Shown piece by piece: positions 2,602-41,611 of a stretch of DNA of 59,677 nt. The notes below the pieces were generated by a model that saw only the letters and a program-made list of their open reading frames with translations, was not told the origin of the DNA and ran no database searches. The position numbers and the translations under genes are program-made. Each line of letters begins with the position of its first letter. The first letter of the stretch is position 1. Source of the DNA: a virus. The stretch lies in IMG/VR virus record IMGVR_UViG_3300029581_000014; one strand, written 5' to 3'.

Positions 2602-3384
2602 ATGAACGAATTACAAACATCAAACATGAAAACACCCATTGAGATTGCACTTGGTGTTGATGAAAACGGAATGACTACTGCAAGAGCGTTATACGAGTTT
2701 TTGAGCGGAGAAAAAAGTCATTTTGCAAGATGGGCGAAAACAAACATTGAGGAAAACGAGTTTTACGAGGAAAACAAGGACTGGTGGGGGTTCGCCACGA
2801 TGGCGAACGGTAACGAATGCAAGGATTACCGACTGACTACCGACTTTGCGAAACATCTGTCAATGGAAAGCCATTCTGCAAGGGGCAAAGAAGCAAGACA
2901 GTATTTTATCACCATAGAGGACAGGGCGAAGCAGGAAGTAATAAATCGGTCACAACTTTCTCCACAGATGCAAATGGTTATGTCACTGGCTGAGAGCATG
3001 GCACGACAGGAACTGGAACAGAAGAAACAAGCCGAACAGGTTCAGAAGCTGGAAAGTACAGTCACCAACATGAAAGAAATTTTCACAGAGCCTATCGGAG
3101 ACTGGAAAGCAGACATTAATGCAAAGGTACGCAATATTTCTGCAAAGAGCGGTATCGACTATCAGACACTTTACAATCAGATGTACGGTGAACTGGAAAA
3201 TGAAGCACATTGCGTTTTGGCAAGGCTTCAGAGCAATAAAATCAAGCGTATGGAAGATGCTGGTAACACTAAAACAGCTATCAAAGAGGGAACTACAAAG
3301 ATTGCGGTTATTTTTGACAATGCAAGACTGAGAGTAATCTTTGAGAATATCGTAAGGAGATACGCTATGAGGTATTGCGCATGA
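2602..3384 (+). CDS. Phage antirepressor-like protein (AntA/KilAC type)
   Basis: SD aaaggaga. N-terminal 'TARALYEFLSGEKSHFARWAKTNI...DYRLTTDFAKHLSM' resembles the AntA/AntB domain. Confidence 0.6.
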   Translation: MNELQTSNMKTPIEIALGVDENGMTTARALYEFLSGEKSHFARWAKTNIEENEFYEENKDWWGFATMANGNECKDYRLTTDFAKHLSMESHSARGKEARQYFITIEDRAKQEVINRSQLSPQMQMVMSLAESMARQELEQKKQAEQVQKLESTVTNMKEIFTEPIGDWKADINAKVRNISAKSGIDYQTLYNQMYGELENEAHCVLARLQSNKIKRMEDAGNTKTAIKEGTTKIAVIFDNARLRVIFENIVRRYAMRYCA

Positions 3385-21385: not shown

Positions 21386-21607
21386 ATGAAGTTATCAAAA
21401 CTGACTAAGCCAGAACTTGAAGAAATCTTCCGGAACGCCAATTTCACGGAAGAGGAAGAGAAAGTGTTTTGGGATTTGTCTAAAGGAATTTCTCAAAAAG
21501 AAATATCCTTTAGACATTCCATTTCTGTAACTACTGTAGAAAGAAGAGTAAGGTCTATAAAAAATAAACTTAAGCGGTTAGAAGGTGATAGATTTGGAAC
21601 TTTCTGA
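21386..21607 (+). CDS. Sigma-70 region-4 / LuxR-type HTH small regulator
   Basis: 'EEEKVFWDLSKGISQKEISFRHSISVTTVERRVRSIKNKL' has a region-4-like HTH. Confidence 0.5.
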   Translation: MKLSKLTKPELEEIFRNANFTEEEEKVFWDLSKGISQKEISFRHSISVTTVERRVRSIKNKLKRLEGDRFGTF

Positions 21608-21608
21608 T

Positions 21609-22805
21609 ATGGAAATATTGCAATATGCCGTTAGCAATGGTATGATTGACACGGAATCTTTGCAAAAAAGCATTGAAATGAAAAAGAAAGAGGAGTATCT
21701 GAAGAAACACCAATACGCAATCAACAAAGGCAAAGACGGATACTGGAGAACTTATTTGCCAGATGAAGAAAAAGGAAGGAGACTTGTAAAAAAGAAAAGC
21801 GAGGAAGATATCAAAGAAGAAGTTATTGAGTTTTACTACCAAAAAGAGCAAAATCCAACAGTTACAGAAGTGTTTTACGAATGTGAAGACCGGAGATTGT
21901 CTCTTAAAAAGATATGTAAAGCAACATACGACAGAGACGAGAGATATTTTCTCAGACACTATGGAGAGTTGGGAAAGCGAAGAATAAAATCAATATCAGA
22001 AGATGAATGGGGGGATTTTTTAGAGGAAGAAATTGCCGATAAAGAGTTGACACCTAAATCATTTTCCGGTCTAAAAGGAATTACAAGAACATTTCTTAAA
22101 AGAGCGAAAAAACGCAAACTTATTGATTTTAATATCGTAGAACTGTTTGATAATCTTGACGTATCTGATAGTGATTTTAAAAAAGTAATAAAAGAAGACT
22201 ATGAAGAAGTATTCGACGAATATGAAACTGATGTAATGATTAAGTATCTTGTCAGCCACCTTGATACTTCTAATGTTGCGATATTGCTTATGTTTTTAAC
22301 TGGCGTACGTATCGGAGAAGTTGTAACATTAAGGCATTCCGATTTTTCTGATAATACTTTTAACGTTCGCAGAACGGAGACGAAGTATAAAGATGAAAAC
22401 GGAAACAATGTTGTTGAAGTAAAAGAGTATCCTAAAACCAAGGCAGGAATCAGAACAGCAATTATACCAAGTGATTATGTATGGATTTGCGATAAAATAA
22501 AACACATGAATCCGTTTGGAGATTACATTTTTACAAAAAATGATATTAGGATCACCGCACAGGCGGTTAGACAAAGGCAGAAAAGGCTTTGCAGGAAATT
22601 GAAAATTTATCCAAAGCCACCGCACAAAGTAAGAAAGACATATGGAACTATTCTTATGGATAACAATGTGGATAAGAGACTTGTTATGGATCAGATGGGG
22701 CATACAGATATTATGACATCAGAAATACACTATCATAGGAACAGGAAAACCATTGAAAAGAAATCGTCTATTTTGAGTAGTATACCAGATTTACAGGCAA
22801 GGTGA
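21609..22805 (+). CDS. int: Tyrosine-type site-specific integrase
   Basis: 'LTGVRIGEV' (Arg), 'PHKVRKTYGT' (HxxR), 'GHTDIMTSEIHYHRN' (His..Tyr). ATG lies 2 nt after the previous stop. Confidence 0.85.
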   Translation: MEILQYAVSNGMIDTESLQKSIEMKKKEEYLKKHQYAINKGKDGYWRTYLPDEEKGRRLVKKKSEEDIKEEVIEFYYQKEQNPTVTEVFYECEDRRLSLKKICKATYDRDERYFLRHYGELGKRRIKSISEDEWGDFLEEEIADKELTPKSFSGLKGITRTFLKRAKKRKLIDFNIVELFDNLDVSDSDFKKVIKEDYEEVFDEYETDVMIKYLVSHLDTSNVAILLMFLTGVRIGEVVTLRHSDFSDNTFNVRRTETKYKDENGNNVVEVKEYPKTKAGIRTAIIPSDYVWICDKIKHMNPFGDYIFTKNDIRITAQAVRQRQKRLCRKLKIYPKPPHKVRKTYGTILMDNNVDKRLVMDQMGHTDIMTSEIHYHRNRKTIEKKSSILSSIPDLQAR

Positions 22806-28079: not shown

Positions 28080-28757
28080 TTAATCGGGGTCATTTTCTTT
28101 TTTCCACATTTCCTTGTAGTGTTCAATATCGTCATTCAATATTTTTGTGGCGGTATCTGCTAATTCTTGGAAATATGTAATCACTTCGGAATTGCTTTTC
28201 GGCAATCTTCCAGTGCAACGCATAAATTCCTGCTTGGCATTGTCGAAATTATAAGTCTTACCTATCTGTAATAAAAGGCTGTGCATATATTCCCTTGTTG
28301 AAAGTTTGTATACACCGCATATAAAGTTGATTTTCCAACGATTGATACAAAACCAGTCTGTCTCAATCGGCAATACTGGCTTTTCCTCGATTGCTGTTGT
28401 GGGTTGCTGATTCTTTACCGCAAAATAAGCATCCACAAGAGCATCCTGCACTTTCCATGATAATTCGTCATTAAATGACTTTACAACTTTCAAATATCCT
28501 CGCTCTGTAATAAGCGTAGTACCTTTTTTATTAGGTGTAATTCCAGATAGACGAATTTCGTAGGTCTTAAAATCTGGCTTAACAACAATGTAGTCCTTTC
28601 CCTCTGAAAAATACTTTTTATTCTGCCTAAAGTTTCTGTATGCAGTCCCTGCCGGTCTTTGATGAGCGTTGTCAATATCTCTAAAAGTGACAACCCTCTG
28701 ACCATTGTATTCTCTGACAGCTAGTTCTGTTCCCTCAACGTTTACCAGTTCCGTCAT
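28080..28757 (-). CDS. ORF6N/KilA-N-type domain protein (antirepressor-like)
   Basis: 'YNGQRVVTFRDIDNAHQRPAGTAYRNFRQNKKYFSEGKDYIVV...TLITERGYLKVV' has the ORF6N pattern. Confidence 0.55.
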   Translation of the reverse strand: MTELVNVEGTELAVREYNGQRVVTFRDIDNAHQRPAGTAYRNFRQNKKYFSEGKDYIVVKPDFKTYEIRLSGITPNKKGTTLITERGYLKVVKSFNDELSWKVQDALVDAYFAVKNQQPTTAIEEKPVLPIETDWFCINRWKINFICGVYKLSTREYMHSLLLQIGKTYNFDNAKQEFMRCTGRLPKSNSEVITYFQELADTATKILNDDIEHYKEMWKKENDPD

Positions 28758-30109: not shown

Positions 30110-30757
30110 TCATCCGGCCAGTTTATTCACCGACTTATTTTCCAAAAATTCCTTAATTTCTCCGTATCCCCAACCGTATCCAACCAGTGAACTTACAAGC
30201 ATTTCTGCATTCTGAACTAACAGTAGTTCTTCCTCAGTCAGATAATCCCGGATGTTTTCTTTGTTGCCAATATTAAGGTCAAGCCGTAATTGCTTTGCGG
30301 TTTTTCCGAATACTGATTTATAAATCAAATCGGTGTAGGTAGAGTATGCATGACCGTGCATCCGTTCATTTTCGGAAGTCCTCTGCAAACTATCCGTAAG
30401 TACCCTGCGGACACCAATTCCTTTTTCACGTTCCCGTATTTTGCCGATAAGAGCCTTTTCCATAGCGTTAAACTGCCGTATATAGGCTTCCTTGAACTGC
30501 ATAGCTTTTTCACCAGTGTATCCCATAGCAAGAAGAGTAAAGCCGTCTCTTGTCATAATAAACATTGGCTGCTTATGCCCTTGCTCATTCACATAATTCG
30601 ACTGCACAAAATTGCGCAGTCGAAATTCTTCACTGCATTTCAAATCACGTATGTCTTGTAACACTCTACGGTGTTCTTTTCCGAACGTTTCCGCAATATC
30701 AAGGCTTGTTACAACGGTTACTTCTTCTTTGTTTACTGTTTTGATTTCAACTAACAT
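30110..30757 (-). CDS. Rha-family phage regulatory protein
   Basis: 'VTSLDIAETFGKEHRRVLQDIRDL...MFIMTRDGFTLLAMGYTGEKAMQFKEAYIRQF' has the Phage_pRha pattern. Confidence 0.75.
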   Translation of the reverse strand: MLVEIKTVNKEEVTVVTSLDIAETFGKEHRRVLQDIRDLKCSEEFRLRNFVQSNYVNEQGHKQPMFIMTRDGFTLLAMGYTGEKAMQFKEAYIRQFNAMEKALIGKIREREKGIGVRRVLTDSLQRTSENERMHGHAYSTYTDLIYKSVFGKTAKQLRLDLNIGNKENIRDYLTEEELLLVQNAEMLVSSLVGYGWGYGEIKEFLENKSVNKLAG

Positions 30758-30979
30758 TTTCTACCTCCAACAAATACATTGTCATGGGGCAGAAGAGCAT
30801 AAAAATAAGCCCACTACCCCTGTTACTGTTGGAGTAGCGAACTTCCAATCTTTTTTTGGTCTGTCTTTATTCCGGGTCTTGGTTACAATCTAGGCTGTCT
30901 AATCAGCTTTCACTCTCCGGACGTGGTGCAAGACTTCCTAACTGACATATATTATACCATGCAGAACGTAGATTCGCAA
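30758..30979 (-). promoter_or_regulatory. Rha-operon promoter (TTGCGA-17-TATAAT, TG-extended) plus 190-nt structured leader ending in an intrinsic terminator (30799..30837). Paralog of the late-operon leader at 35094..35253.
   Basis: Shares CAGTTAGGRAG, GAGTGA, ACAGCC, a 17-nt identity AGATTGTAACCAAGACC (30875-30891) and GACAGACC with the 35.1-kb copy. Confidence 0.55.
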
Positions 30980-31014
30980 CAAAAATAAGAGCACCCTTTC
31001 GGATGCCCTTAAAA

Positions 31015-31638
31015 TCAGTTATCTTGATGCTCGGATAAGTCGTAAATAACTTCATCTGTGTCTTGGTCTACAATTAACACATTGAAGTCTCTGTCTTCAG
31101 GTGGAACTAAATTATATGCTTGAATAGAGTCACTTAATACTCCGCATATAATTGACACGCCAAAAGGAATAAAAGGATTGCCAGCTTCATATTCTTCCTT
31201 GTCTGCATAAAAAGTAAACTCTGAAAAATCATCGTTGTAGTCTACTGATTTTAGAGAAGCATACTGCTCATCAGAAAAAATTTGCTGAAACGTAGAGTTA
31301 AGATTATCTTTGCTTAATATCTCGTCTAATGTAGCTTGTCTCTTTGATTCCTTAATTGTAAGCGTGTAGTGGTCATCATCATATACCTCAACTACGGCAT
31401 CAGGATTTTCTTTTTTATAATCTGCCACATATTGTTCAATCCCTACGTTGTTGAAATCGTAAGCAGACAAGATAATATCAACATCCTTGTCAAAAAGCTG
31501 TGGTGTTTCTGATTCCTCTACTGGTGATACGTTTGGTGTTTCTTGTGGTTTTTGTGTAAGGTCTACGGTGTTCGTCTGTGACCCACAACCGCAGACAAGA
31601 AGTGATAAAGACAGTAGTAATGGAATAATTCGTTTCAT
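31015..31638 (-). CDS. Lipoprotein (207 aa)
   Basis: 'MKRIIPLLLSLSLLVCGCGS' is a signal peptide with a lipobox. Second ATG chosen, 8 nt after ggggga. Confidence 0.7.
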   Translation of the reverse strand: MKRIIPLLLSLSLLVCGCGSQTNTVDLTQKPQETPNVSPVEESETPQLFDKDVDIILSAYDFNNVGIEQYVADYKKENPDAVVEVYDDDHYTLTIKESKRQATLDEILSKDNLNSTFQQIFSDEQYASLKSVDYNDDFSEFTFYADKEEYEAGNPFIPFGVSIICGVLSDSIQAYNLVPPEDRDFNVLIVDQDTDEVIYDLSEHQDN

Positions 31639-31713
31639 AAACATTTCCCCCTATAGGTTTATTAAAAATCTCATTTTTTGAGATCTTTTTCGTAAAAAAT
31701 TTTGTGTCAACCG

Positions 31714-31771
31714 TTTTCATACCCCCGTAGGTCTGCATTTTCAACCGAAAATCTCGTTTTCAGAGGTTTTT
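31714..31771. repeat. Imperfect direct repeat, copy A (about 58 bp)
   Basis: TTTTCATACCCCCGTAGGTCTGCATTTTCAACCGAAAATCTCGTTTTCAGAGGTTTTT. About 75% identical to copy B. Confidence 0.8.
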
Positions 31772-31807
31772 GAAAGAAAAATTTTTCTACAAATTTCGTG
31801 CTAAAAA

Positions 31808-31866
31808 TTTTCAATCCCCCCGGGGTAGCACTTTTCAAGCTGAAAAATCCGTTTTCAGAGATTTTT
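31808..31866. repeat. Imperfect direct repeat, copy B (about 59 bp)
   Basis: TTTTCAATCCCCCCGGGGTAGCACTTTTCAAGCTGAAAAATCCGTTTTCAGAGATTTTT. Confidence 0.8.
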
Positions 31867-31928
31867 CACTGATTTTTTTATGCCGATTGAAGGCATGAAA
31901 CGCTTGTAAGCTCTTGTGGTGCATCCGG

Positions 31929-32123
31929 TCACCGTGTCGCAGCTTTCGCAAGGTCTCCGACAGCCGAAAGAATAGCATCGTGCGCAGACCGCAACAGCTC
32001 CGCAGATTCAGGAGACAGAACACCGGCGGCATTCTCTACCCTTATGACGGTTTCCAACCGTTCCCCGGCATCCGCTACGATCTCCATGATATCGTATACA
32101 TGACCGATTCCTACTTTTCGCAT
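31929..32123 (-). CDS. Hypothetical protein (64 aa) in a GC-richer patch
   Basis: Track ORF with SD aggggga. Upstream promoter TTGACG-18-TAAAAT (TG-extended). Confidence 0.5.
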   Translation of the reverse strand: MRKVGIGHVYDIMEIVADAGERLETVIRVENAAGVLSPESAELLRSAHDAILSAVGDLAKAATR

Positions 32124-32292
32124 TTTGATAAAATCCCCCTTGTAATATTTGATTTTACACCAAGACAGCGCAAGCCGTCAATATATCTGGGTGCAGGATC
32201 TGACCGGATCCGGTGGAAGAGTAACACAAATAGACCGCCAGGCGGCATCAGATCCCACTGAACACGACAAAAAGACGGTTGTAAGCCGTCTT

Positions 32293-32409
32293 TTATCTGT
32301 TTTCAAGTTCAAAAATTGCCCACCGCATAGCGGCGACTGTCTCCGTGTCTTTCTCTCGCTCCGCACGCTCTAACAGCTTGTAAAGTCTTTCAAGGTTCTT
32401 TTCTTCCAT
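32293..32409 (-). CDS. Small hypothetical protein (38 aa)
   Basis: SD taggaggt 8 nt upstream. Followed by terminator gacgg/ccgtc + T5 (32268-32292, minus). Confidence 0.45.
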   Translation of the reverse strand: MEEKNLERLYKLLERAEREKDTETVAAMRWAIFELENR

Positions 32410-32500
32410 CTTGGCAACCTCCTATTTTTAATTTTAGGGCAGATTCCACCCATAAAACCGCCGCCGGTAGTGATCCGGCGGGCATCCTCTGCGGCGGCTG

Positions 32501-32839
32501 TCAAGGTTCAAAATCTATAATTCCTAAATAAAATTGATCTTTAAAGTTATTAAAAAAATGATCTTTTAAATCTGATAATGTTTTTTCTCCATTTTTTAAC
32601 GATTCAAAATCACTCAACACCATTTCATCAGTATAATTTGCATATTTATATTAACTAATTGATATCCTAAATTTTTCCCCGGATTTTACCCATCCACAAC
32701 AACCGGAATTTTTAGCAACTGGATATGCACCTATCTCATATCCATATAAATCCATATAATCTTTTGTGTTTTTATCGTGCCAATCCTCTAGCTGTATTAA
32801 TGTACCGTCAGGCATTTTCGATTTTTCTATAATTTTCAT
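32501..32839 (-). pseudogene. Conserved-looking ORF interrupted by one in-frame TAA (32651..32653)
   Basis: Track ORF 32651..32857 (start at M7, SD ggaggag) and a 40-codon ORF 32501..32623 are in the same frame, separated only by TAA. The reading is ...GEKFRISIS*YKYANYTDEMVLSDFESLKNGEKTL... Confidence 0.5.
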
Positions 32840-32921
32840 TTTCTCGCTCCTCCGCATTTTTCAAATTTTCCCGTTTCCGGGTAAAAGCAAGCCGGGGCAC
32901 GATCCCCGGTGTAAGCCTGTC

Positions 32922-33290
32922 TTACTTGCTAAATTTAACAATATGATAAATTATATCAAAAGAATGGCTTAATGCTCTTGCCTGTGTGTCTAACCATTCC
33001 TCGGATCTGTTTGGTTTGTTCTCGCCGCCACAAACCTTTTTTAACTCAGACGGGCAACAGAGACGTTCGGCAATGTCACAATCATAAATCAGAGAGCAGC
33101 CGCCCCAACTGTACTGTTTCCAGTCAGCGGCGCCATTCAGTAAAAGGCTTTTTAACTCTGTTTTGTCCTGCGGAATCTCTTCAACTTCTAGAGCTTCTAC
33201 AAGCTCATAAGCATAGATCTTTACACCTTTATTCCATGCGCTTCTTGCCTTGCTGTTGTTGATTGCTTCTAATAATTCATTCTTTCTCAT
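32922..33290 (-). CDS. Hypothetical protein (122 aa)
   Basis: Track ORF followed by hairpin ccgggg/ccccgg (32886-32903). Confidence 0.6.
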   Translation of the reverse strand: MRKNELLEAINNSKARSAWNKGVKIYAYELVEALEVEEIPQDKTELKSLLLNGAADWKQYSWGGCSLIYDCDIAERLCCPSELKKVCGGENKPNRSEEWLDTQARALSHSFDIIYHIVKFSK

Positions 33291-33291
33291 A

Positions 33292-33382
33292 TTGCTTTTA
33301 CCTTTTCACCCGTGTTATAATATGGGTGCCTTTCTTTTTGGGTGCCGCTCGGAAGTCTTGCAGGATGCCGGGCGGCTTTTTT
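33292..33382 (+). ncRNA. Candidate short plus-strand transcript: TTGCTT-18-TATAAT (TG-extended) and terminator gccgctcgg/ccgggcggc + T6
   Basis: Read directly. It would be antisense to the leader/promoter of the 33290 gene. The ttataatatgggt box is shared with 30027-30040. Confidence 0.3.
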
Positions 33383-33528
33383 ATTTGTTGAGATAACTAT
33401 AACAGATATAAGGCACAAAAGAAAGATGTAATAATATACAAATATAAGGCACAAAATAAGTTCTTTTGTTGTGCAAAATATATAAGGCACAAAAAACATG
33501 ATTATATTATAGTAGATAAAAAATAATA

Positions 33529-33557
33529 TTGACATATAAGGCACAAACAAATATAAT
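33529..33557 (+). promoter_or_regulatory. Promoter TTGACA-17-TATAAT with an iteron in the spacer
   Basis: -35 at 33529-33534 and -10 at 33552-33557. Confidence 0.65.
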
Positions 33558-33588
33558 AAAGATACATTTATATAAGGAGGTGCAAACA

Positions 33589-33780
33589 ATGGAGCGAAAA
33601 ACTACAGATGCAACAAGAAAAGCGATTTACAAATACGACAACAAATTTGAACGGGTGAATTGCCGTTTTGCAACTGGCACAAAAGACCGCATCAATAAAT
33701 TAGGTTATAAGAGTGTAAATGATTTTATAAAATTAGCTGTTGCGGAAAAACTGGAGCATGACGAAAAAATATTAAAATAA
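33589..33780 (+). CDS. Small RHH-like DNA-binding protein (63 aa)
   Basis: Internal ATG with SD aaggaggtg. 'RVNCRFATGTKDRINKLGYKSVNDFIKLAVAEKL'. Confidence 0.55.
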   Translation: MERKTTDATRKAIYKYDNKFERVNCRFATGTKDRINKLGYKSVNDFIKLAVAEKLEHDEKILK

Positions 33781-33794
33781 GGCACAAAAACATA

Positions 33795-33823
33795 TTGACA
33801 TATAAGGCACAAAATGCTATAGT
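33795..33823 (+). promoter_or_regulatory. Promoter TTGACA-17-TATAGT with an iteron in the spacer
   Basis: -35 at 33795-33800 and -10 at 33818-33823. Confidence 0.6.
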
Positions 33824-33923
33824 GATATCACGATATCAAACAAGTGATATCACACTAATGATGTCATGATATCACACAAATGATATCACAAAAAAACTAA
33901 TGATATCACATAAATGATATCAC
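33823..33923. repeat. Array of six perfect TGATATCAC sites plus two degenerate ones in the leader of the 33943 gene
   Basis: Starts at 33823, 33845, 33867, 33881, 33901 and 33915 (spacings 22, 22, 14, 20, 14). Degenerate copies at 33831 and 33859. Confidence 0.9.
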
Positions 33924-33942
33924 AAGAAAAGGAGGTGCTAAA

Positions 33943-34395
33943 ATGGCGGAAACATTTAACCAAATGATTAGATTCCCGAAAGACCTAGAACCGCAGATCA
34001 AAGCGCAAGCAGAAAAGAACGGTGAAAGCGTCAACCAGTTTGTTATAGGTGCCGTGATTGCAGCATTGCAACCAGTACAGCCGCAGGCAGTGACAGGACA
34101 ACCGAAAGAAGCACCCGTGACAGGCTCTAAAAGCCCCATAGACGAGAAAATCGCACTCATGCAGGCAAATGAACGGTTACACGCTTTACAAGCCAAAACA
34201 GCGGCAGAAAGAGCCGCTAGAGAGCACGGAGAAGTTGCACCAGTCGTTAAACATCCTCCAAAATGGGCGGGCTTACCCGGACAGCGGCCAGACGAAAGTA
34301 ATGTTGAATGGGTAGAACGCAAGAGGAAAGAAGCGGAAGAAATTTATAAGCAAGGTATGGAACGAATACAAAGAGAAAAGGAGCAGAAAGCATGA
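33943..34395 (+). CDS. RHH (Arc/ParG/omega-like) N-terminal domain protein with a charged tail (150 aa)
   Basis: SD aaaaggaggtg. 'MIRFPKDLEPQIKAQAEKNGESVNQFVIGAV'. GC-richer than the surroundings. Confidence 0.55.
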   Translation: MAETFNQMIRFPKDLEPQIKAQAEKNGESVNQFVIGAVIAALQPVQPQAVTGQPKEAPVTGSKSPIDEKIALMQANERLHALQAKTAAERAAREHGEVAPVVKHPPKWAGLPGQRPDESNVEWVERKRKEAEEIYKQGMERIQREKEQKA

Positions 34396-34694
34396 AAGGA
34401 ACACCAGAGCAGATCACAGCAAAGAAAGCCGCCCGGATCCGGTCAAATGTCCGGCAGTTCTTCCGGTACTACCGGGAGCAACTGGAAAACGTGGAATCCG
34501 AACGGCTGAAAGAATTTAACCGGGCAGAACTCCAAGCACTGGAAGATGTGCAAGCGGAAACACTCCAAGCACTGGAGAGTATGACAGATTTGGAGTTATT
34601 GTCCAGTAAGACCGCATACGGTGACAGGGTATTAATCGACCGGATCACAGCAAGAGCGGAACGGATCAGAAGAACAGAAAGAGCAACAGCATAA
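34392..34694 (+). CDS. Hypothetical protein (100 aa)
   Basis: Track ORF with an ATGA overlap. Confidence 0.55.
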   Translation: MKGTPEQITAKKAARIRSNVRQFFRYYREQLENVESERLKEFNRAELQALEDVQAETLQALESMTDLELLSSKTAYGDRVLIDRITARAERIRRTERATA

Positions 34695-34703
34695 ACAGGA
34701 ATT

Positions 34704-34730
34704 AAGCAGGTGTAAAAGCCTGCTTTTCTT
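34704..34730 (+). terminator. Terminator aagcagg/cctgctt + T-run
   Basis: A 7-bp stem followed by ttttctt. Confidence 0.6.
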
Positions 34731-34765
34731 GATCTATTTTCACTGCGTTGTTTTAACGTGCTAAA

Positions 34766-34798
34766 TTTTGTAGACAAATTGTAGACAAATTGTAGACG
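34766..34798. repeat. Three tandem 11-bp units (A/T)(A/T)TTGTAGAC(A/G)
   Basis: ttttgtagaca-aattgtagaca-aattgtagacg, in the 660-bp non-coding region before terS. Confidence 0.85.
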
Positions 34799-35093
34799 CA
34801 GATAAGATTAAATAAGATTAGATTAAATAAAAGGAGATAAGATAAAAGTAAATAAAAGCAGAAAGACATTGTATAACCAAGTATATATAAATACTAGAGC
34901 CGACCGGCTGCCACCATGTACCCATCTGCAAAAATCACCTGTCTGTCTGTCAAATAACCCCATTTATCAAATTTAACTGTATGATATTTTTTAATCGCAT
35001 GATTTTTATTTGCTCAGGATCACCGGCAGACCTACCACCATAACAAATCGTCAAATGCGTAAAAGGTTGTTGTAGATTTATAAATAGCACTTA

Positions 35094-35253
35094 TGGTATG
35101 ATAAAAGCAGTTAGGGAGCCGACGTTAATACGGTGCGAGTGACAGCGGTACAAATCCACCCCCCTCTGGATATACAGCCGCCCAGATTGTAACCAAGACC
35201 ACCGGAGCCGACAGACCGGAAACGATCAGAAGTCACTAGCTGATCACTTTTTT
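35094..35253 (+). promoter_or_regulatory. Late-operon promoter (TG-extended TATGAT, 35094..35102) plus structured leader RNA ending in intrinsic terminator GATCAG/CTGATC + T6 (35224..35253)
   Basis: Paralog of the Rha leader. The closing helix CGGUG (35131-35135) / CACCG (35200-35204) corresponds to UCCGG/CCGGA in the other copy, so the changes are compensatory. Confidence 0.55.
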
Positions 35254-35355
35254 AGATTTATGTTTTACTGATACACGTTGAGGAGATCAAAAAAACATGG
35301 GTTTATTAAGTGACGCCTAGTGATTTTTTATGCAGATTTTTAGGAGGTGCAGAGC

Positions 35356-36027
35356 ATGGAAAAAGTCGAAAACACAGAAACATCCCAGGTATATGAAAAT
35401 GACATGGAATTATACCTATCCCAGTTCTGCAAGGATCAGAAAATCGAGGATATTAGACAAGAGTCTCAAAGCGTCTGGAATGCTGCTCTTATGTATATTA
35501 AACGTCATGCATTTAATGAGCCTGATTGTCTCAAGTCTAAATCCCTTGTAAATACTACTGGATCATTTACAGGTGGAGTTAGTAACTATAACGCTTATAA
35601 CTATGATTTAGTTAACCGTATATGTGATTATTATATATATATGTGTATGATGTATGATAAAGAGGTATCAGCTATAGGATTTAGCTTATTAACAGGTATA
35701 GACAGATATACAATAGCTACATGGAGAGATGAGGGGACTAAATTAAGTCCATCGTGTTCTGACATCGGCAAAAAGATATCGGATTTCCGTGAAGAGTCTT
35801 TAAGCGCAAAACTTGCCACAGCAAAGCGCAACCCTGTAGGGATCCTGGCAATATTAAACCGTCACTACGGTTGGAACCTTCCAGGAGTATCGAGAGAGCA
35901 GCAGAACCACAAGCAAGCGTTGACTGCTTCGGATTTGCCACAGTTAGGCGGCACAAATGGACAAAATACATCAATGTTGACCAATTCCGGAGCGTATGAC
36001 GATAATACATCAGATGCAAATAAGTAG
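35356..36027 (+). CDS. terS: Terminase small subunit
   Basis: ATG 6 nt after aggaggtg. Its position and HTH-like 'IGFSLLTGIDRYTIATWRDEG' support the call. Confidence 0.6.
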   Translation: MEKVENTETSQVYENDMELYLSQFCKDQKIEDIRQESQSVWNAALMYIKRHAFNEPDCLKSKSLVNTTGSFTGGVSNYNAYNYDLVNRICDYYIYMCMMYDKEVSAIGFSLLTGIDRYTIATWRDEGTKLSPSCSDIGKKISDFREESLSAKLATAKRNPVGILAILNRHYGWNLPGVSREQQNHKQALTASDLPQLGGTNGQNTSMLTNSGAYDDNTSDANK

Positions 36028-37805: not shown

Positions 37806-37876
37806 AGGGCTATCGCCAAGCGGTAAGGCACAGCACTTTGACTGCTGCATCCCAGGTCCGAATCCTGGTAGTCCTG
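37806..37876 (+). tRNA. tRNA-Gln(TTG): tRNA-Gln (anticodon TTG)
   Basis: Hand-folded cloverleaf. Acceptor AGGGCTA/TAGTCCT, anticodon arm CAGCA-CTTTGAC-TGCTG, T-arm CCAGG-TCCGAAT-CCTGG. No encoded CCA. Confidence 0.8.
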
Positions 37877-38289: not shown

Positions 38290-38363
38290 TGTGACGTAGC
38301 GCAAATGGAGAGAGCAACAGTCTTCTAAGCTGTGTGGTATGGGTTCGAGTCCCTTCGTCACAA
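38290..38363 (+). tRNA. tRNA-Arg(TCT): tRNA-Arg (anticodon TCT)
   Basis: Acceptor TGTGACG/CGTCACA, anticodon arm ACAGT-CTTCTAA-GCTGT, T-loop TTCGAGT (one T-stem mismatch). Confidence 0.7.
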
Positions 38364-38521: not shown

Positions 38522-38604
38522 GCAGATATGGTGTAATGGTATCACAGTAGCTTGCTAAGCTATCCAGCAGAAATGCTGTCAAGGTTCAAATCCTTGTATC
38601 TGCG
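38522..38604 (+). tRNA. tRNA-Ser(GCT): tRNA-Ser (anticodon GCT), class II with a long variable arm
   Basis: Acceptor GCAGATA/TATCTGC, anticodon arm GTAGC-TTGCTAA-GCTAT, variable arm CCAGCAGAAATGCTGTC, T-arm CAAGG-TTCAAAT-CCTTG. Confidence 0.75.
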
Positions 38605-39868: not shown

Positions 39869-41611
39869 TTGGCAAGTCAGAGCCTTATCACGGCAGTAAA
39901 CAGCTATGACAATTACATACAGCGCAAGGGAATTGATGAACAGGTCATTGATGCGTACATAGAAGCCTGTAAGGTGGCAATTAACAGTGAAAAGGATATT
40001 CAGTACGGATTACAACTTACAGAGCGTTCCAAGGGCATTGTAGAACGTTTTTGCATGGATAGGACAGGCGCCTCCATATGGGATTTGGAAAAGTATTCCT
40101 TTGCAAACAAGACGCACTATTCTCTGACAGATAAATTATACGATGTTCTTTTACTAGAAGCACAAAATAAGGTTGTGGACAGTGCATACCGATACTTGGA
40201 AAAGAAAAGAGAACCTAGAGAGCGGTTCTACATGCCACGTAGAAAGCAATTTCTTAAAATCGGTCTAATGGATGCCATTCAAGGCATGATTGATGATAAA
40301 TACGACATTCTCTGCGTGTCACTTATCCCTGGTGCCGGAAAAACTACGGTCGAAAAAATGCTGAATGCATTGGTAGCAGGATGGTTTCCGAGAGATTTCA
40401 ACCTTTTTTACTCCCACAGTGGAGATATTACACGTATGTACTATGACGGTGTGTACGATATTTGCACAAATTCTGACGAGTACACTTGGAATGAAATTTT
40501 CCCAAATCTTTCAGTTACCAGTACTAATGCAAAAATGGAACAGTTTAACATCGGCAAATATAAACCATTTCCATCCGTTCAGTGCACATCCGTAGGAAGT
40601 AAAAATGCTGGTAAAGTACGTGCATCAAAGTTTTTGTTCGTAGATGACATGATCGGTGGCATCGAAGAAGCTATGAATCCTATAATTTTGGATAAACTGT
40701 GGGACAAATATGCTGTAGACGCAAGACAGAGAAAAACACAGGACACGGATGGAAAGAACTGTAAAGAGATTCATATTGCTACTAGGTGGAGCGTAAATGA
40801 TGTAATAGGTCGGATCCAAAATATGTATGAAGGTAATCCGAGAGTAAAGGTTATTTCAGTACCTGATATAGACCCCAAGACAGGATTAAGCAATTTTGAC
40901 TACGAATTTTCCGGATTTACGGTTGCTTTTTTTGAAGATCAACAATTACTCATGGATGAAATCTCTTATAGGTGTCTTTACAAACAGGAGCCTATTGAAC
41001 GTGAGGGATTGTTATTCCCGGAAGAAAAAATCAGACGTTATCTTAATCTGCCACATGGGGAACCGGAAATTATTACAGGGCAATGCGATACCAAGGGAAA
41101 AGGAACAGACTTTTTTGTTCTTCCGGTATTACAAAAGTACGGAGAAGATTATTACTGCGTTGATTGTGTGTGTAACAATACAGCAGATTATGAAATGCAG
41201 TATGAAAATGCGGCAAATGTACTCGTTAATAATAAAGTGCAAGAGTGCGAATTTGAACGTAATGCTGGTGGTGACCGTGTTGCAATGGAAGTAAATAAAC
41301 GTGTAGAAAGTAAAGGCTGGATATGCAATATTACTGATACTCCAACAGAGACAAACAAGGAAGCTAGAATTTTTCAGTGCTCTAACTGGATATTGCAACA
41401 CGTTATTTTCAAGGATCCGTCATTGTATAAGCCTAACGAATCATACGGTGTAATGATGTCGTTACTGAAAAGGTATTCTGTTTCAGGAAAAAAACAGTTA
41501 GATGATGTCCCGGATGTATTTTCTAACTTTGCTTTAAGAATCACAAACGGTAACAGAGTGGCAAGAGCAGAAGCAATCAGCAATCCTTTTTCAATGGGTA
41601 GGAGGTATTAG
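39869..41611 (+). CDS. terL: Terminase large subunit
   Basis: 580 aa. TTG start after ggaaggagg, Walker A-like 'IPGAGKTT', located upstream of the portal gene. Confidence 0.8.
   Translation: MASQSLITAVNSYDNYIQRKGIDEQVIDAYIEACKVAINSEKDIQYGLQLTERSKGIVERFCMDRTGASIWDLEKYSFANKTHYSLTDKLYDVLLLEAQNKVVDSAYRYLEKKREPRERFYMPRRKQFLKIGLMDAIQGMIDDKYDILCVSLIPGAGKTTVEKMLNALVAGWFPRDFNLFYSHSGDITRMYYDGVYDICTNSDEYTWNEIFPNLSVTSTNAKMEQFNIGKYKPFPSVQCTSVGSKNAGKVRASKFLFVDDMIGGIEEAMNPIILDKLWDKYAVDARQRKTQDTDGKNCKEIHIATRWSVNDVIGRIQNMYEGNPRVKVISVPDIDPKTGLSNFDYEFSGFTVAFFEDQQLLMDEISYRCLYKQEPIEREGLLFPEEKIRRYLNLPHGEPEIITGQCDTKGKGTDFFVLPVLQKYGEDYYCVDCVCNNTADYEMQYENAANVLVNNKVQECEFERNAGGDRVAMEVNKRVESKGWICNITDTPTETNKEARIFQCSNWILQHVIFKDPSLYKPNESYGVMMSLLKRYSVSGKKQLDDVPDVFSNFALRITNGNRVARAEAISNPFSMGRRY

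Follow-up and report, generated by a model that had tools for sequence, protein, structure and literature searches.

Two copies of a leader on opposite strands

IMG/VR virus record IMGVR_UViG_3300029581_000014, a stretch of 59,677 nucleotides that is referred to here in full as the window, encodes a tyrosine integrase (21585-22805; Pfam Phage_integrase, 1.9e-16) and the phage is therefore taken to be temperate. The window carries the same leader module twice, namely as copy A (35094-35253, + strand), which precedes a terS-like gene at the putative start of the late operon, and as copy B (30799-30979, - strand), which precedes a gene for a regulator of the Rha family (Table 1). By comparing these copies with their relatives in other phages we found that the leaders contain a large structured RNA, in which a rod of stacked helices is followed by two mutually exclusive hairpins, and that this RNA is probably a cis-acting element that controls the read-through of transcription into the downstream genes.

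An earlier inspection of the letters of the window alone (the sequence-only reading) had described a paralogous promoter and structured-leader module on opposite strands, and all the features it listed were recovered at the positions it gave. Each copy starts with a predicted promoter of the sigma70 type that has a TG-extended -10 element, which in copy B reads TGgTATAAT (30959-30951) and where a promoter consensus scan gives 10 out of 12 matches in addition to the TG. A 5' block, CAGTTAGG(G/A)AG, begins 6-7 nucleotides past the -10 (at 35108 in copy A and at 30944 in copy B), and the spacing to the -10 suggests that transcription of copy A probably starts around 35107-35109, i.e. just upstream of CAGUUAGG. 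The 5' tail motif is found within the window at the two elements only. Further blocks common to both copies are GAGTGA, CAGCC, a 17-mer AGATTGTAACCAAGACC (35184-35200 in copy A, 30875-30891 in copy B) and GACAGACC, and the alignment of the two RNAs is free of gaps between the 5' block and GAGUGA and between the 17-mer and GACAGACC. Exact matches to the 17-mer number two in the window, and when up to three mismatches are allowed three matches are found against 0.22 expected, a number reached in none of 100 shuffles. A hairpin insert, AUCCA/UGGAU (35154-35158 / 35167-35171), is present in copy A and missing from copy B, as had been remarked before. The complete leader measures about 220 nucleotides for copy A and about 145 for copy B.

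Table 1. Positions in the window of the two leader copies, their structural parts and the genes behind them, and loci in related phages that carry unrelated leaders
Feature	Strand	Position	Remarks
Copy A promoter	+	35094-35102	TG-extended -10 TGgTATGAT, poor -35; read from sequence
Copy B promoter	-	30951-30979	TTGCGA 30979-30974, 17-nucleotide spacer, TATAAT 30956-30951, TG 30959-30958
5' tail CAGUUAGGGA, copy A	+	35108-35117	conserved, single-stranded; types A, B, D1 and E, near-identical in A2 and D2
Rod domain, copy A	+	35118-35212	RNAalifold, pair counts, covariance-model matches
P0, copy A	+	35118-35122 / 35208-35212	
P0, copy B	-	30934-30930 / 30867-30863	
P1, copy A	+	35131-35135 / 35200-35204	
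P1, copy B	-	30921-30917 / 30875-30871	
P1a, copy A	+	35138-35140 / 35186-35188	
P1a, copy B	-	30914-30912 / 30889-30887	
P2, copy A	+	35145-35148 / 35178-35181	
P2, copy B	-	30907-30904 / 30897-30894	
AGACC and A-rich linker	+	35213-35223	conserved in alignments
5' tail, rod and AGACC, copy B	-	30858-30944	alignment, RNAalifold, pair counts; covariance-model score 106 bits
Hairpin H3	+	35224-35245	stem 35224-35229 / 35240-35245; 10-nucleotide loop L AAGUCACUAG 35230-35239
Long hairpin T	+	35230-35329	U-run 35324-35329; tip variable
Copy B terminator	-	30801-30844	5' strand AAGUUCGCUACUCC 30844-30831, 3' strand 30820-30807, 14 base pairs, U-run 30805-30801
terS-like gene	+	35342-36027	Shine-Dalgarno AGGAGG 35342-35347, ATG 35356, 223 amino acids; from the list of open reading frames
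Rha-family regulator gene	-	30110-30757	Pfam Phage_pRha 1.4e-33; PHROG transcriptional regulator / anti-repressor
Loci with unrelated leaders		L120:9400-9655, L198:2820-2990, L202:2170-2340, L206:7850-7990, L207:7850-7990, L213, L214	

Relatives and sequence types

At the gathering score, Rfam 15 recovers three tRNAs from the window and matches neither copy, and even at E<=10 a search of 30500-35600 gave no match overlapping copy A or B, which agrees with the initial impression that the motif belongs to no named family. Cultured or deposited phages gave no DNA match to the element, near or distant. An exact scan of IMG/VR with the 17-mer, on the other hand, returned at least 118 loci, two of which are chance matches while the rest belong to a single family of phages with genomes of about 55-60 kb; among the matches listed, loci that have both copies carry them on opposite strands at a spacing of 3.8-5.6 kb. 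Within a type the variation is small and consistent with pairing (e.g. the hairpin stem GAUCAG/CUGAUC alternates with GACAAG/CUUGUC).

More divergent leaders were reached via homologues of the downstream terS-like protein and the contigs that encode them. There are 1944 such homologues, one of which is from Faecalicatena acetigenes, and some lie on contigs of megabase size, i.e. in prophages. As the sequence-only reading had proposed, a covariance model (R1) was built from copies A and B, and it was then run on these loci. It found no third copy in the window but did find relatives elsewhere, so that at least five types are now known in which P1 and three more helices covary. The covariance-model search yielded the A' variants, which have a long P2 (L203 and L212), and the A2 type (L210 and L215). 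In the E type (L208) P1 reads GGCGG/CCGCC and P0 GCUGC/GUAGC, GAGUUA stands for GAGUGA, and the 17-mer is represented by the variant GAAUUGCAACCAAGACC, which is one base shorter. In the D type the core is cut down to P1-CG-P2-AGGAC-P1'; this type lacks both GAGUGA and the 17-mer and retains the helices, its places in the genome and the 3' module. This type is doubled in one phage, with D1 before a Bro-N gene and D2 before the terS-like gene, and a metagenome scan provided a second contig with both D copies. The perfect identity of the 17-mer therefore holds between copies A and B, but not across the family, as GCAACC replaces its GTAACC in some A-type relatives and in the E type and the D types lack it altogether. 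Finally, at L209:398-555 the whole rod has been deleted between two GGAGCCGAC direct repeats, whereas the tail, AGACC, H3 and T are kept; the coverage of this contig is low (about 3.5x).

All new types were reached by way of the proteins, and additional scans extended this collection little. When IMG/VR was scanned for a third type of P1, with the 17-mer followed by K or with the 5' block with W at P1, only chance matches were obtained, and a scan of IMG/VR with the 5' end of D1 gave no match. A 21-mer of the element was not found in the GTDB species genomes, and a protein-guided scan of GTDB led to one Lachnospiraceae metagenome-assembled genome with a leader of a different kind. The host is probably a Firmicute of the Lachnospiraceae.

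Two variable features of the relatives may be mentioned here. The length of the C run in the P2 loop (35159-35164 in copy A) lies between about C5 and C10 in IMG/VR relatives that hardly differ elsewhere, and a C-rich P2 loop is seen in all late-operon copies (A, A', A2, E and D2) and not in the Rha/Bro copies (B and D1); this variation may come from slippage in the homopolymer or from errors in sequencing, or the two copies may differ in function. In the two A' loci (L203:713-916 and L212:852-1055), genes for an AcrIC5-like (anti-CRISPR) protein and for a protein of 174 amino acids lie between the leader and a homologue of the 100-amino-acid protein that is encoded upstream of copy A.

The rod domain is maintained by compensatory change

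When copies A and B were folded together, RNAalifold returned helix P1, a P1a of three base pairs and a P2 of four. P1 reads CGGUG/CACCG in copy A and UCCGG/CCGGA in copy B, and since the copies align without gaps in this region the differences fall at aligned positions, so that four out of five pairs are indeed compensatory, as the sequence-only reading had held. The 17-mer forms the conserved junction strand of the rod, whereas the tip of P2 is variable and consists in copy A of AUCCA/UGGAU plus a C-rich loop. Below P1 the rod is closed by a further helix, P0, which had been missed at first and in which C-G, U-A, A-U and G-C are all found at one and the same position. The 5' tail and AGACC, which flank P0, are single-stranded and conserved.

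Pairs were counted in an alignment (A7) of 19 sequences that represent seven types (A, A', A2, E, B, D1 and D2). Of the rod cells 90% are paired, a share that drops to 25-49% once the 3' partners are displaced by 1-3 columns. Both sides differ in 12 of the 17 pairs, and the covariation score is 0.452 against 0.146 after shuffling, with none of 500 shuffles reaching the observed value; these statistics overstate independence, in that the sequences are kin and the structure was partly drawn from them, and the changes occurred in at least five separate lineages. In P1 all five pairs covary, and a single position may show as many as three kinds of pair. Judged by these substitution patterns, the RNA structure is under selection.

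Copy A also contains a GUG-initiated frame of 19 codons within the rod and a mini open reading frame (MGLLSDA) at 35297-35320; a coding role was rejected for both, as neither frame is kept in relatives.

Two overlapping hairpins follow the rod

The sequence-only reading had let the element end at 35253, with GATCAG/CTGATC and the six U residues at 35248-35253 as an intrinsic terminator. This hairpin, H3, has in the window a stem of six base pairs with three G-C pairs, a 10-nucleotide loop, a 2-nucleotide spacer and U6; a terminator scan that was limited to loops of 3-8 nucleotides did not list it. The U-run behind H3 is not conserved, for it comprises six residues here and in some relatives and two to five in others, and is absent in L215. 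The hairpin itself is nevertheless maintained: four of the six pairs have changed on both sides, with up to four pair types per position (GAUCAG, GACAAG, GGCAGG, GGCGAG, GAAUGG and GGUAGG, each with its complement), and the sequence of loop L, AAGUCACUAG, is conserved.

Loop L also takes part in a second and much longer hairpin, T. In T, L pairs with a strand S2, CUAGUGAUUU (35317-35326), a strand X, UCACUU (35244-35249), which overlaps the last two bases of the H3 stem, pairs with S1, AAGUGA (35308-35313), and AUGUUUU (35260-35266) pairs with AAAACAU (35292-35298) around the variable tip. The U-run that follows is conserved and lies about 12 nucleotides before the Shine-Dalgarno sequence. L and S2 co-vary in A2, where AAGUUAUCA(G) faces (C)UGAUAACUU, and in D2, where GUCGC faces GCGAU, and in L103 a G·U pair between them has become A-U; X and S1 show a compensatory change in A' (CCACUU with AAGUGG). 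In total 93.7% of the T cells are paired, against 35-51% in slid controls, and six pairs have changed on both sides. H3, L:S2, X:S1 and the base of H4 all covary, and T is the minimum free energy fold in four types (-35 to -58 kcal/mol; z-scores of -4.8 to -8.5).

Hairpin T with its U-run has the features that define an intrinsic terminator, and the same is true of the terminator of copy B. In that copy the homologue of L, AAGUUCGCUACUCC, pairs directly with GGGGUAGUGGGCUU, after which the U-run follows (z-score -3.3), and a vestigial H3 (UUGG/CCAA) overlaps the top of the terminator; this structure is, by its predicted fold, a compressed counterpart of the T module. The 3' module of copy B is identical to that of D1 in another phage. 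We conclude that T, rather than H3 with its U-run, is the predicted real terminator of the family, and, as a consequence, that the regulatory RNA reaches to about 35330 instead of ending at 35253.

Because H3 and T share nucleotides (the loop and the 3' strand of H3), they can not both form fully. Their overlap, in combination with the selection acting on both, is the signature of a two-state switch of which the stable state is the terminator. In a column-pair scan none of the rod strands showed a conserved pairing with either hairpin. Other candidate pairings were examined as well. An antiterminator formed by the junction AGUGA(C/A) and the H3 loop fits A and B and was rejected as it fails in A2, E and D, and a pairing of the 5' tail with the loop and stem of H3 (CAGUUAG with CUAGCUG) was likewise rejected, not being conserved in B, L203 and D2. 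Loop L could also pair with S1 (95.8% of the cells are paired), but this was rejected as the main pairing, as S1 fits X at least equally well and X:S1 together with L:S2 makes up T, the minimum free energy fold; L:S1 is possible as an intermediate only.

Regulated genes and genome context

The assignment of the gene behind copy A had been part of the sequence-only reading. Placing the leader upstream of terS, and hence of the late operon, is plausible, and it relies on weak profile matches: the protein matches Pfam GP3_package with E=0.004, and 10 out of 13 family members match the same profile, at best with 4e-6. The gene is followed by small genes, three tRNA genes, the gene for TerL (39869-41611) and structural genes. 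The tRNA genes (37806-37876, 38290-38363 and 38522-38604, the third with a long variable arm) lie between the terS-like gene and that for TerL. In a scan of this late unit five further terminator-like hairpins were found and no strong promoter. The Rha gene is monocistronic and has terminators on both sides, the downstream one at 30104-30084 (terminator scan). Other genes of the antirepressor type in the window encode AntA (2602-3384) and a protein with an ORF6N domain (28080-28757, - strand).

Between the two copies, at 33480-33930, lies the probable immunity switch, with strong divergent promoters, repeats and RHH/Arc-like genes, among which an RHH-like reading frame of 63 amino acids with its ATG at 33590. 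Six TGATATCA palindromes are located at 33821-33924, downstream of a TTGACA-17-TATAGT promoter, and a perfect TTGACA-17-TATAAT promoter (33529-33557) has four ATAAGGCACAAA repeats around it. Neither repeat was found at the promoters of copies A and B, and these promoters therefore look independent of the repressor. Between either copy and its gene no other promoter is apparent, which implies that the terS-like gene and the Rha gene depend on read-through.

The position before the terS-like gene is variable in related phages. Phages whose downstream proteins are 31-74% identical have unrelated leaders in the same promoter-leader-terminator layout, and covariance models R1 and R2 gave no match in those leaders. 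They are about 100-190 nucleotides long and comprise at least five further types, each with a strong promoter and a terminator before the terS-like gene. Even the nearest record, Dulem virus 39, whose TerL is 82% identical, has an unrelated leader in single copy (L120:9400-9655). The position thus appears to be a hotspot for the exchange of leader modules.

Proposed control of read-through by a phage-specific factor

The leader would set the level of read-through from a repressor-independent promoter into the downstream gene or genes. We tentatively favour a conditional termination that depends on a factor, in which the rod is read by a phage-specific component that acts in trans, although we would not put this explanation at quite an even chance. 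During transcription H3 would form first, after which the far more stable T would re-use its loop and 3' strand, so that termination would be the default, at T in copy A and at the 14-base-pair terminator in copy B. A phage-specific trans factor, made after induction or infection, would recognise the rod, with the 5' tail and the H3 loop as possible further contacts, and would either lock the H3 state (like RAT, the ribonucleic antiterminator, bound by BglG) or make RNA polymerase resistant to the terminator (like N acting at nut). As the same rod core stands before an antirepressor-like gene (Rha/Bro) and before the late operon, the two would be turned on together by a single factor.

The distribution of cores and flanks suggests such a factor. 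The rod core varies between phages and is common to the two copies within one phage, as observed for the shared core of A and B in dozens of IMG/VR contigs and for D1 and D2 in two contigs, whereas the flanks follow position across phages, and not the phage, as exemplified by the identical 3' modules of B and D1. By analogy this points to a factor acting in trans, for it is the pattern of nutL/nutR and putL/putR (PMC9378689). That no rod strand was seen to pair with H3 or T in the column-pair scan fits recognition by a factor better than the classical overlap of an aptamer with its expression platform. Furthermore, with internal terminator-like hairpins and no strong promoters in the late unit, processive antitermination would be useful there. 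That related phages with unrelated leaders keep the promoter-leader-terminator layout before the same gene is likewise supportive.

Several observations weigh on the other side. Gene conversion between the inverted copies, and not selection by a factor, could be behind the shared cores. L209 has lost the rod and yet kept the tail, H3 and T, which is hard to square with an essential rod, unless this phage is defective or its T is leaky. The promoters, the transcription start and the termination are predictions. In addition, a comparison of gene content identified no cognate factor.

The best candidate for such a factor by position, and a candidate only, is a basic protein of 100 amino acids (34392-34694; isoelectric point 9.1, with Arg-rich N- and C-termini) whose gene directly precedes the copy A promoter, in the place that Q takes in lambda, and is followed by a terminator at 34704-34725. 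It accompanies all 74 A-type loci that have enough upstream DNA. Neither the E nor the D types have it nearby, and in the case of E, which shares the A core, this is a further point against the factor-dependent explanation. Its 680 homologues are all unannotated, with neither a function given by the source nor a recognised Pfam domain. Directly upstream of copy B an acidic protein of 209 amino acids is encoded (31015-31644, - strand; lipoprotein-like signal LLVCGCGS). It is 92-96% identical across the A/B, D and E leader types, which is unusually conserved for a variable region, and with such identity whatever the type of RNA it was ruled out as the specificity factor. No genes for PRD or ANTAR proteins were found nearby.

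Alternative explanations

The rod (with H3) might instead act without a factor, in the way of the put RNAs, by binding host RNA polymerase directly, so that neither T nor the terminators farther down the late operon would stop it, while control would be exerted at the promoters. Such a mode of action would be in keeping with two similar promoter-proximal copies that each start from about +1, with two stem-loops that have bulges, internal loops and compensatory differences between A and B, as in putL and putR, with the terminator-like hairpins inside the late unit, and with the fact that no cognate protein was found. A terminator right after a constitutive antiterminator would, however, have no obvious purpose, and the A and D cores are very different although the hosts appear related, where a conserved polymerase surface predicts more conservation. 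Control at the promoter is not evident either, for the operator repeats of the switch region are absent from both promoters, and a variant without the rod exists in L209. We consider this explanation doubtful.

The layout had also been compared to that of a riboswitch, in which case the rod would be an aptamer for a metabolite or ion and its ligand would tip the balance between H3 and T. The highly conserved junction (GAGUGA and the 17-mer) between covarying helices, the variable peripheral hairpin and the downstream terminator with two mutually exclusive conserved folds are what one would expect of such an RNA. The core of a riboswitch should be conserved in all members, though, whereas here A, B, A2 and E have it and neither D type does. 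With their architecture, their place in the genome and their 3' module all preserved, the D types have CG and AGGAC as their junctions, and without the junction nucleotides a single common small-molecule ligand is disfavoured. Nor was an expression platform seen to overlap the aptamer, despite the alternative of H3 and T, as in the column-pair scan no conserved rod strand competes with either hairpin. Unrelated leaders occupy the same site in related phages, and the regulated genes are non-metabolic. With a core that varies across types, a riboswitch is less likely than a rod that is read by a factor, and we regard it as rather unlikely. The same holds, in our estimation, for the more general idea that the rod senses a host-derived small molecule or a physiological signal, which we consider improbable. 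If it were true, the exit from lysogeny (via the antirepressor) and the expression of the late genes would be tied directly to the state of the host, and the A/E and D cores would represent two ligand classes on one expression platform. A close second to this would be a protein-free, put-like RNA that reprograms a Firmicute RNA polymerase; we know of no protein-free put-like phage element described outside the HK022-type lambdoid phages.

The short terminated transcripts could also themselves be the product, i.e. an abundant small RNA of the phage or prophage that acts as a regulator in trans or as a decoy or sponge for a protein of the host or the phage, with downstream expression as leakage. 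Such transcripts would measure about 145 nucleotides when stopped by H3 or by the terminator of copy B, and about 220 when they run to T. A strong promoter, a conserved single-stranded 5' block, a structured body and a terminator constitute the typical anatomy, and constitutive-looking promoters would let the RNA accumulate in lysogens. Against this, the downstream genes have no other promoter and hence rely on read-through, the element is always in the 5' untranslated region of the same classes of genes, and the 17-mer has no complementary target in the phage at up to three mismatches, which together make a small RNA quite improbable as the main product.

A role at the level of DNA, as inverted repeats for inversion of the 4.3-kb segment or as operator sites of a regulator, would suit the mutually inverted copies with their perfect 17-bp core and similar promoter-proximal DNA, but is hardly credible given the compensatory changes in seven helices, which indicate selection on the RNA, the lack of an adjacent invertase gene, and the absence of A-5'/B-3' chimeras among 75 unique sequences, on which ground the idea of an inverton was rejected.

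Wider meaning

To our knowledge, the control of late genes and antirepressors in gut Firmicute phages has been little studied. The family described here is abundant, with the element in at least 118 IMG/VR loci next to 1944 homologues of the downstream protein, and it places regulatory logic in a large covarying RNA, namely a phage-specific rod joined to a shared two-state terminator module and duplicated before two sets of genes. If recognition of the rod by a factor is confirmed, this would be a nut/put-like antitermination system outside the lambdoid phages that is open to test, as well as a natural case of the modular exchange of RNA specificity cores, and the leader transcript could serve as a marker of prophage state in gut metatranscriptomes. 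The sequence types collected here are sufficient to seed an RNA family model.

Comparison with known systems

The models known for the control of late genes and antirepressors are the DNA-bound activators RinA, ArpU and Alt, next to N, Q and put in the lambdoid phages of the Proteobacteria. As in the case of nutL and nutR, which are recognised by N in lambda, the element has two copies in oppositely oriented units of a temperate phage, with a promoter before and a terminator behind each of them; like a nut site, copies A and B thus lie in two transcription units upstream of terminators. In both systems the recognition core is phage-specific and common to the two copies, and in lambda the outcome is read-through. 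The element differs from nut in being about 100 nucleotides long with four helices, where boxB is a hairpin of 15 nucleotides (no hairpin of the size of boxB was seen in the element), and in having the terminator built in. No boxA was identified in it, and the conserved single-stranded blocks CAGUUAGGGA and AGACC are, we presume, unlike boxA. No N-like gene was identified, the host is probably a Firmicute, and the units concerned are the late operon and an antirepressor-like gene instead of two early operons.

The late region of lambda, in which PR', qut, the 6S leader and tR' are combined with the antiterminator Q, offers a second parallel. There too the late or packaging genes are preceded by a late promoter that looks constitutive, a leader of about 150-220 nucleotides and a terminator, and a small gene lies just upstream, in the position of Q. 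Nevertheless, Q is loaded at a sigma-dependent pause by way of a site in the DNA, and a conserved RNA fold is lacking in the 6S leader of lambda, whereas in the element it is the structure of the RNA that is conserved, and the antirepressor-like gene has a second copy in front of it. The 3' part of the element, in turn, resembles the RAT targets of BglG, SacY and LicT and the targets of ANTAR proteins, in that a small hairpin overlaps a more stable downstream terminator and read-through would follow when a factor holds the small hairpin. H3 resembles neither RAT nor the dual-hexaloop motif of ANTAR targets, however, and a large rod is present upstream here.

The putL and putR RNAs of HK022 are promoter-proximal paralogous stem-loops with bulges and compensatory differences, of about 70 nucleotides, in which two stem-loops adopt a V shape with a triplex (PMC9378689). 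They work on RNA polymerase by themselves, through its beta' zinc-binding domain, and suppress pausing and termination. The pairs A/B and D1/D2 are paralogous and promoter-proximal in the same way, and action in cis is predicted for them as well. Compared by description only, the element differs in its rod of about 100 nucleotides with four coaxial helices and in its separate, switchable hairpin (PMC9378689). Moreover, put needs no adjacent terminator, and, judged from that description, there is no similarity in sequence or model.

A survey of IMG/VR published in 2023 lists 10,006 unnamed candidate structured RNAs and reports transcribed candidates in Caudovirales that infect Lachnospiraceae, mined from the same IMG/VR contigs (PMC10690425). 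Nothing resembling the element is described in its main text as far as consulted, and the catalogue of 10,006 candidates might contain it (PMC10690425).

Of the two comparisons made in the sequence-only reading, that with a riboswitch is thus weakened by the D types, whereas that with put-like processive antitermination, extended to nut, provides the best analogy. Since the structural definitions of put and of boxA/boxB do not apply and the Rfam models gave no match, the element should not be filed in any of these families. It constitutes a new RNA family, absent from Rfam 15, that represents a new variant of an already known, nut/put-like kind of control.

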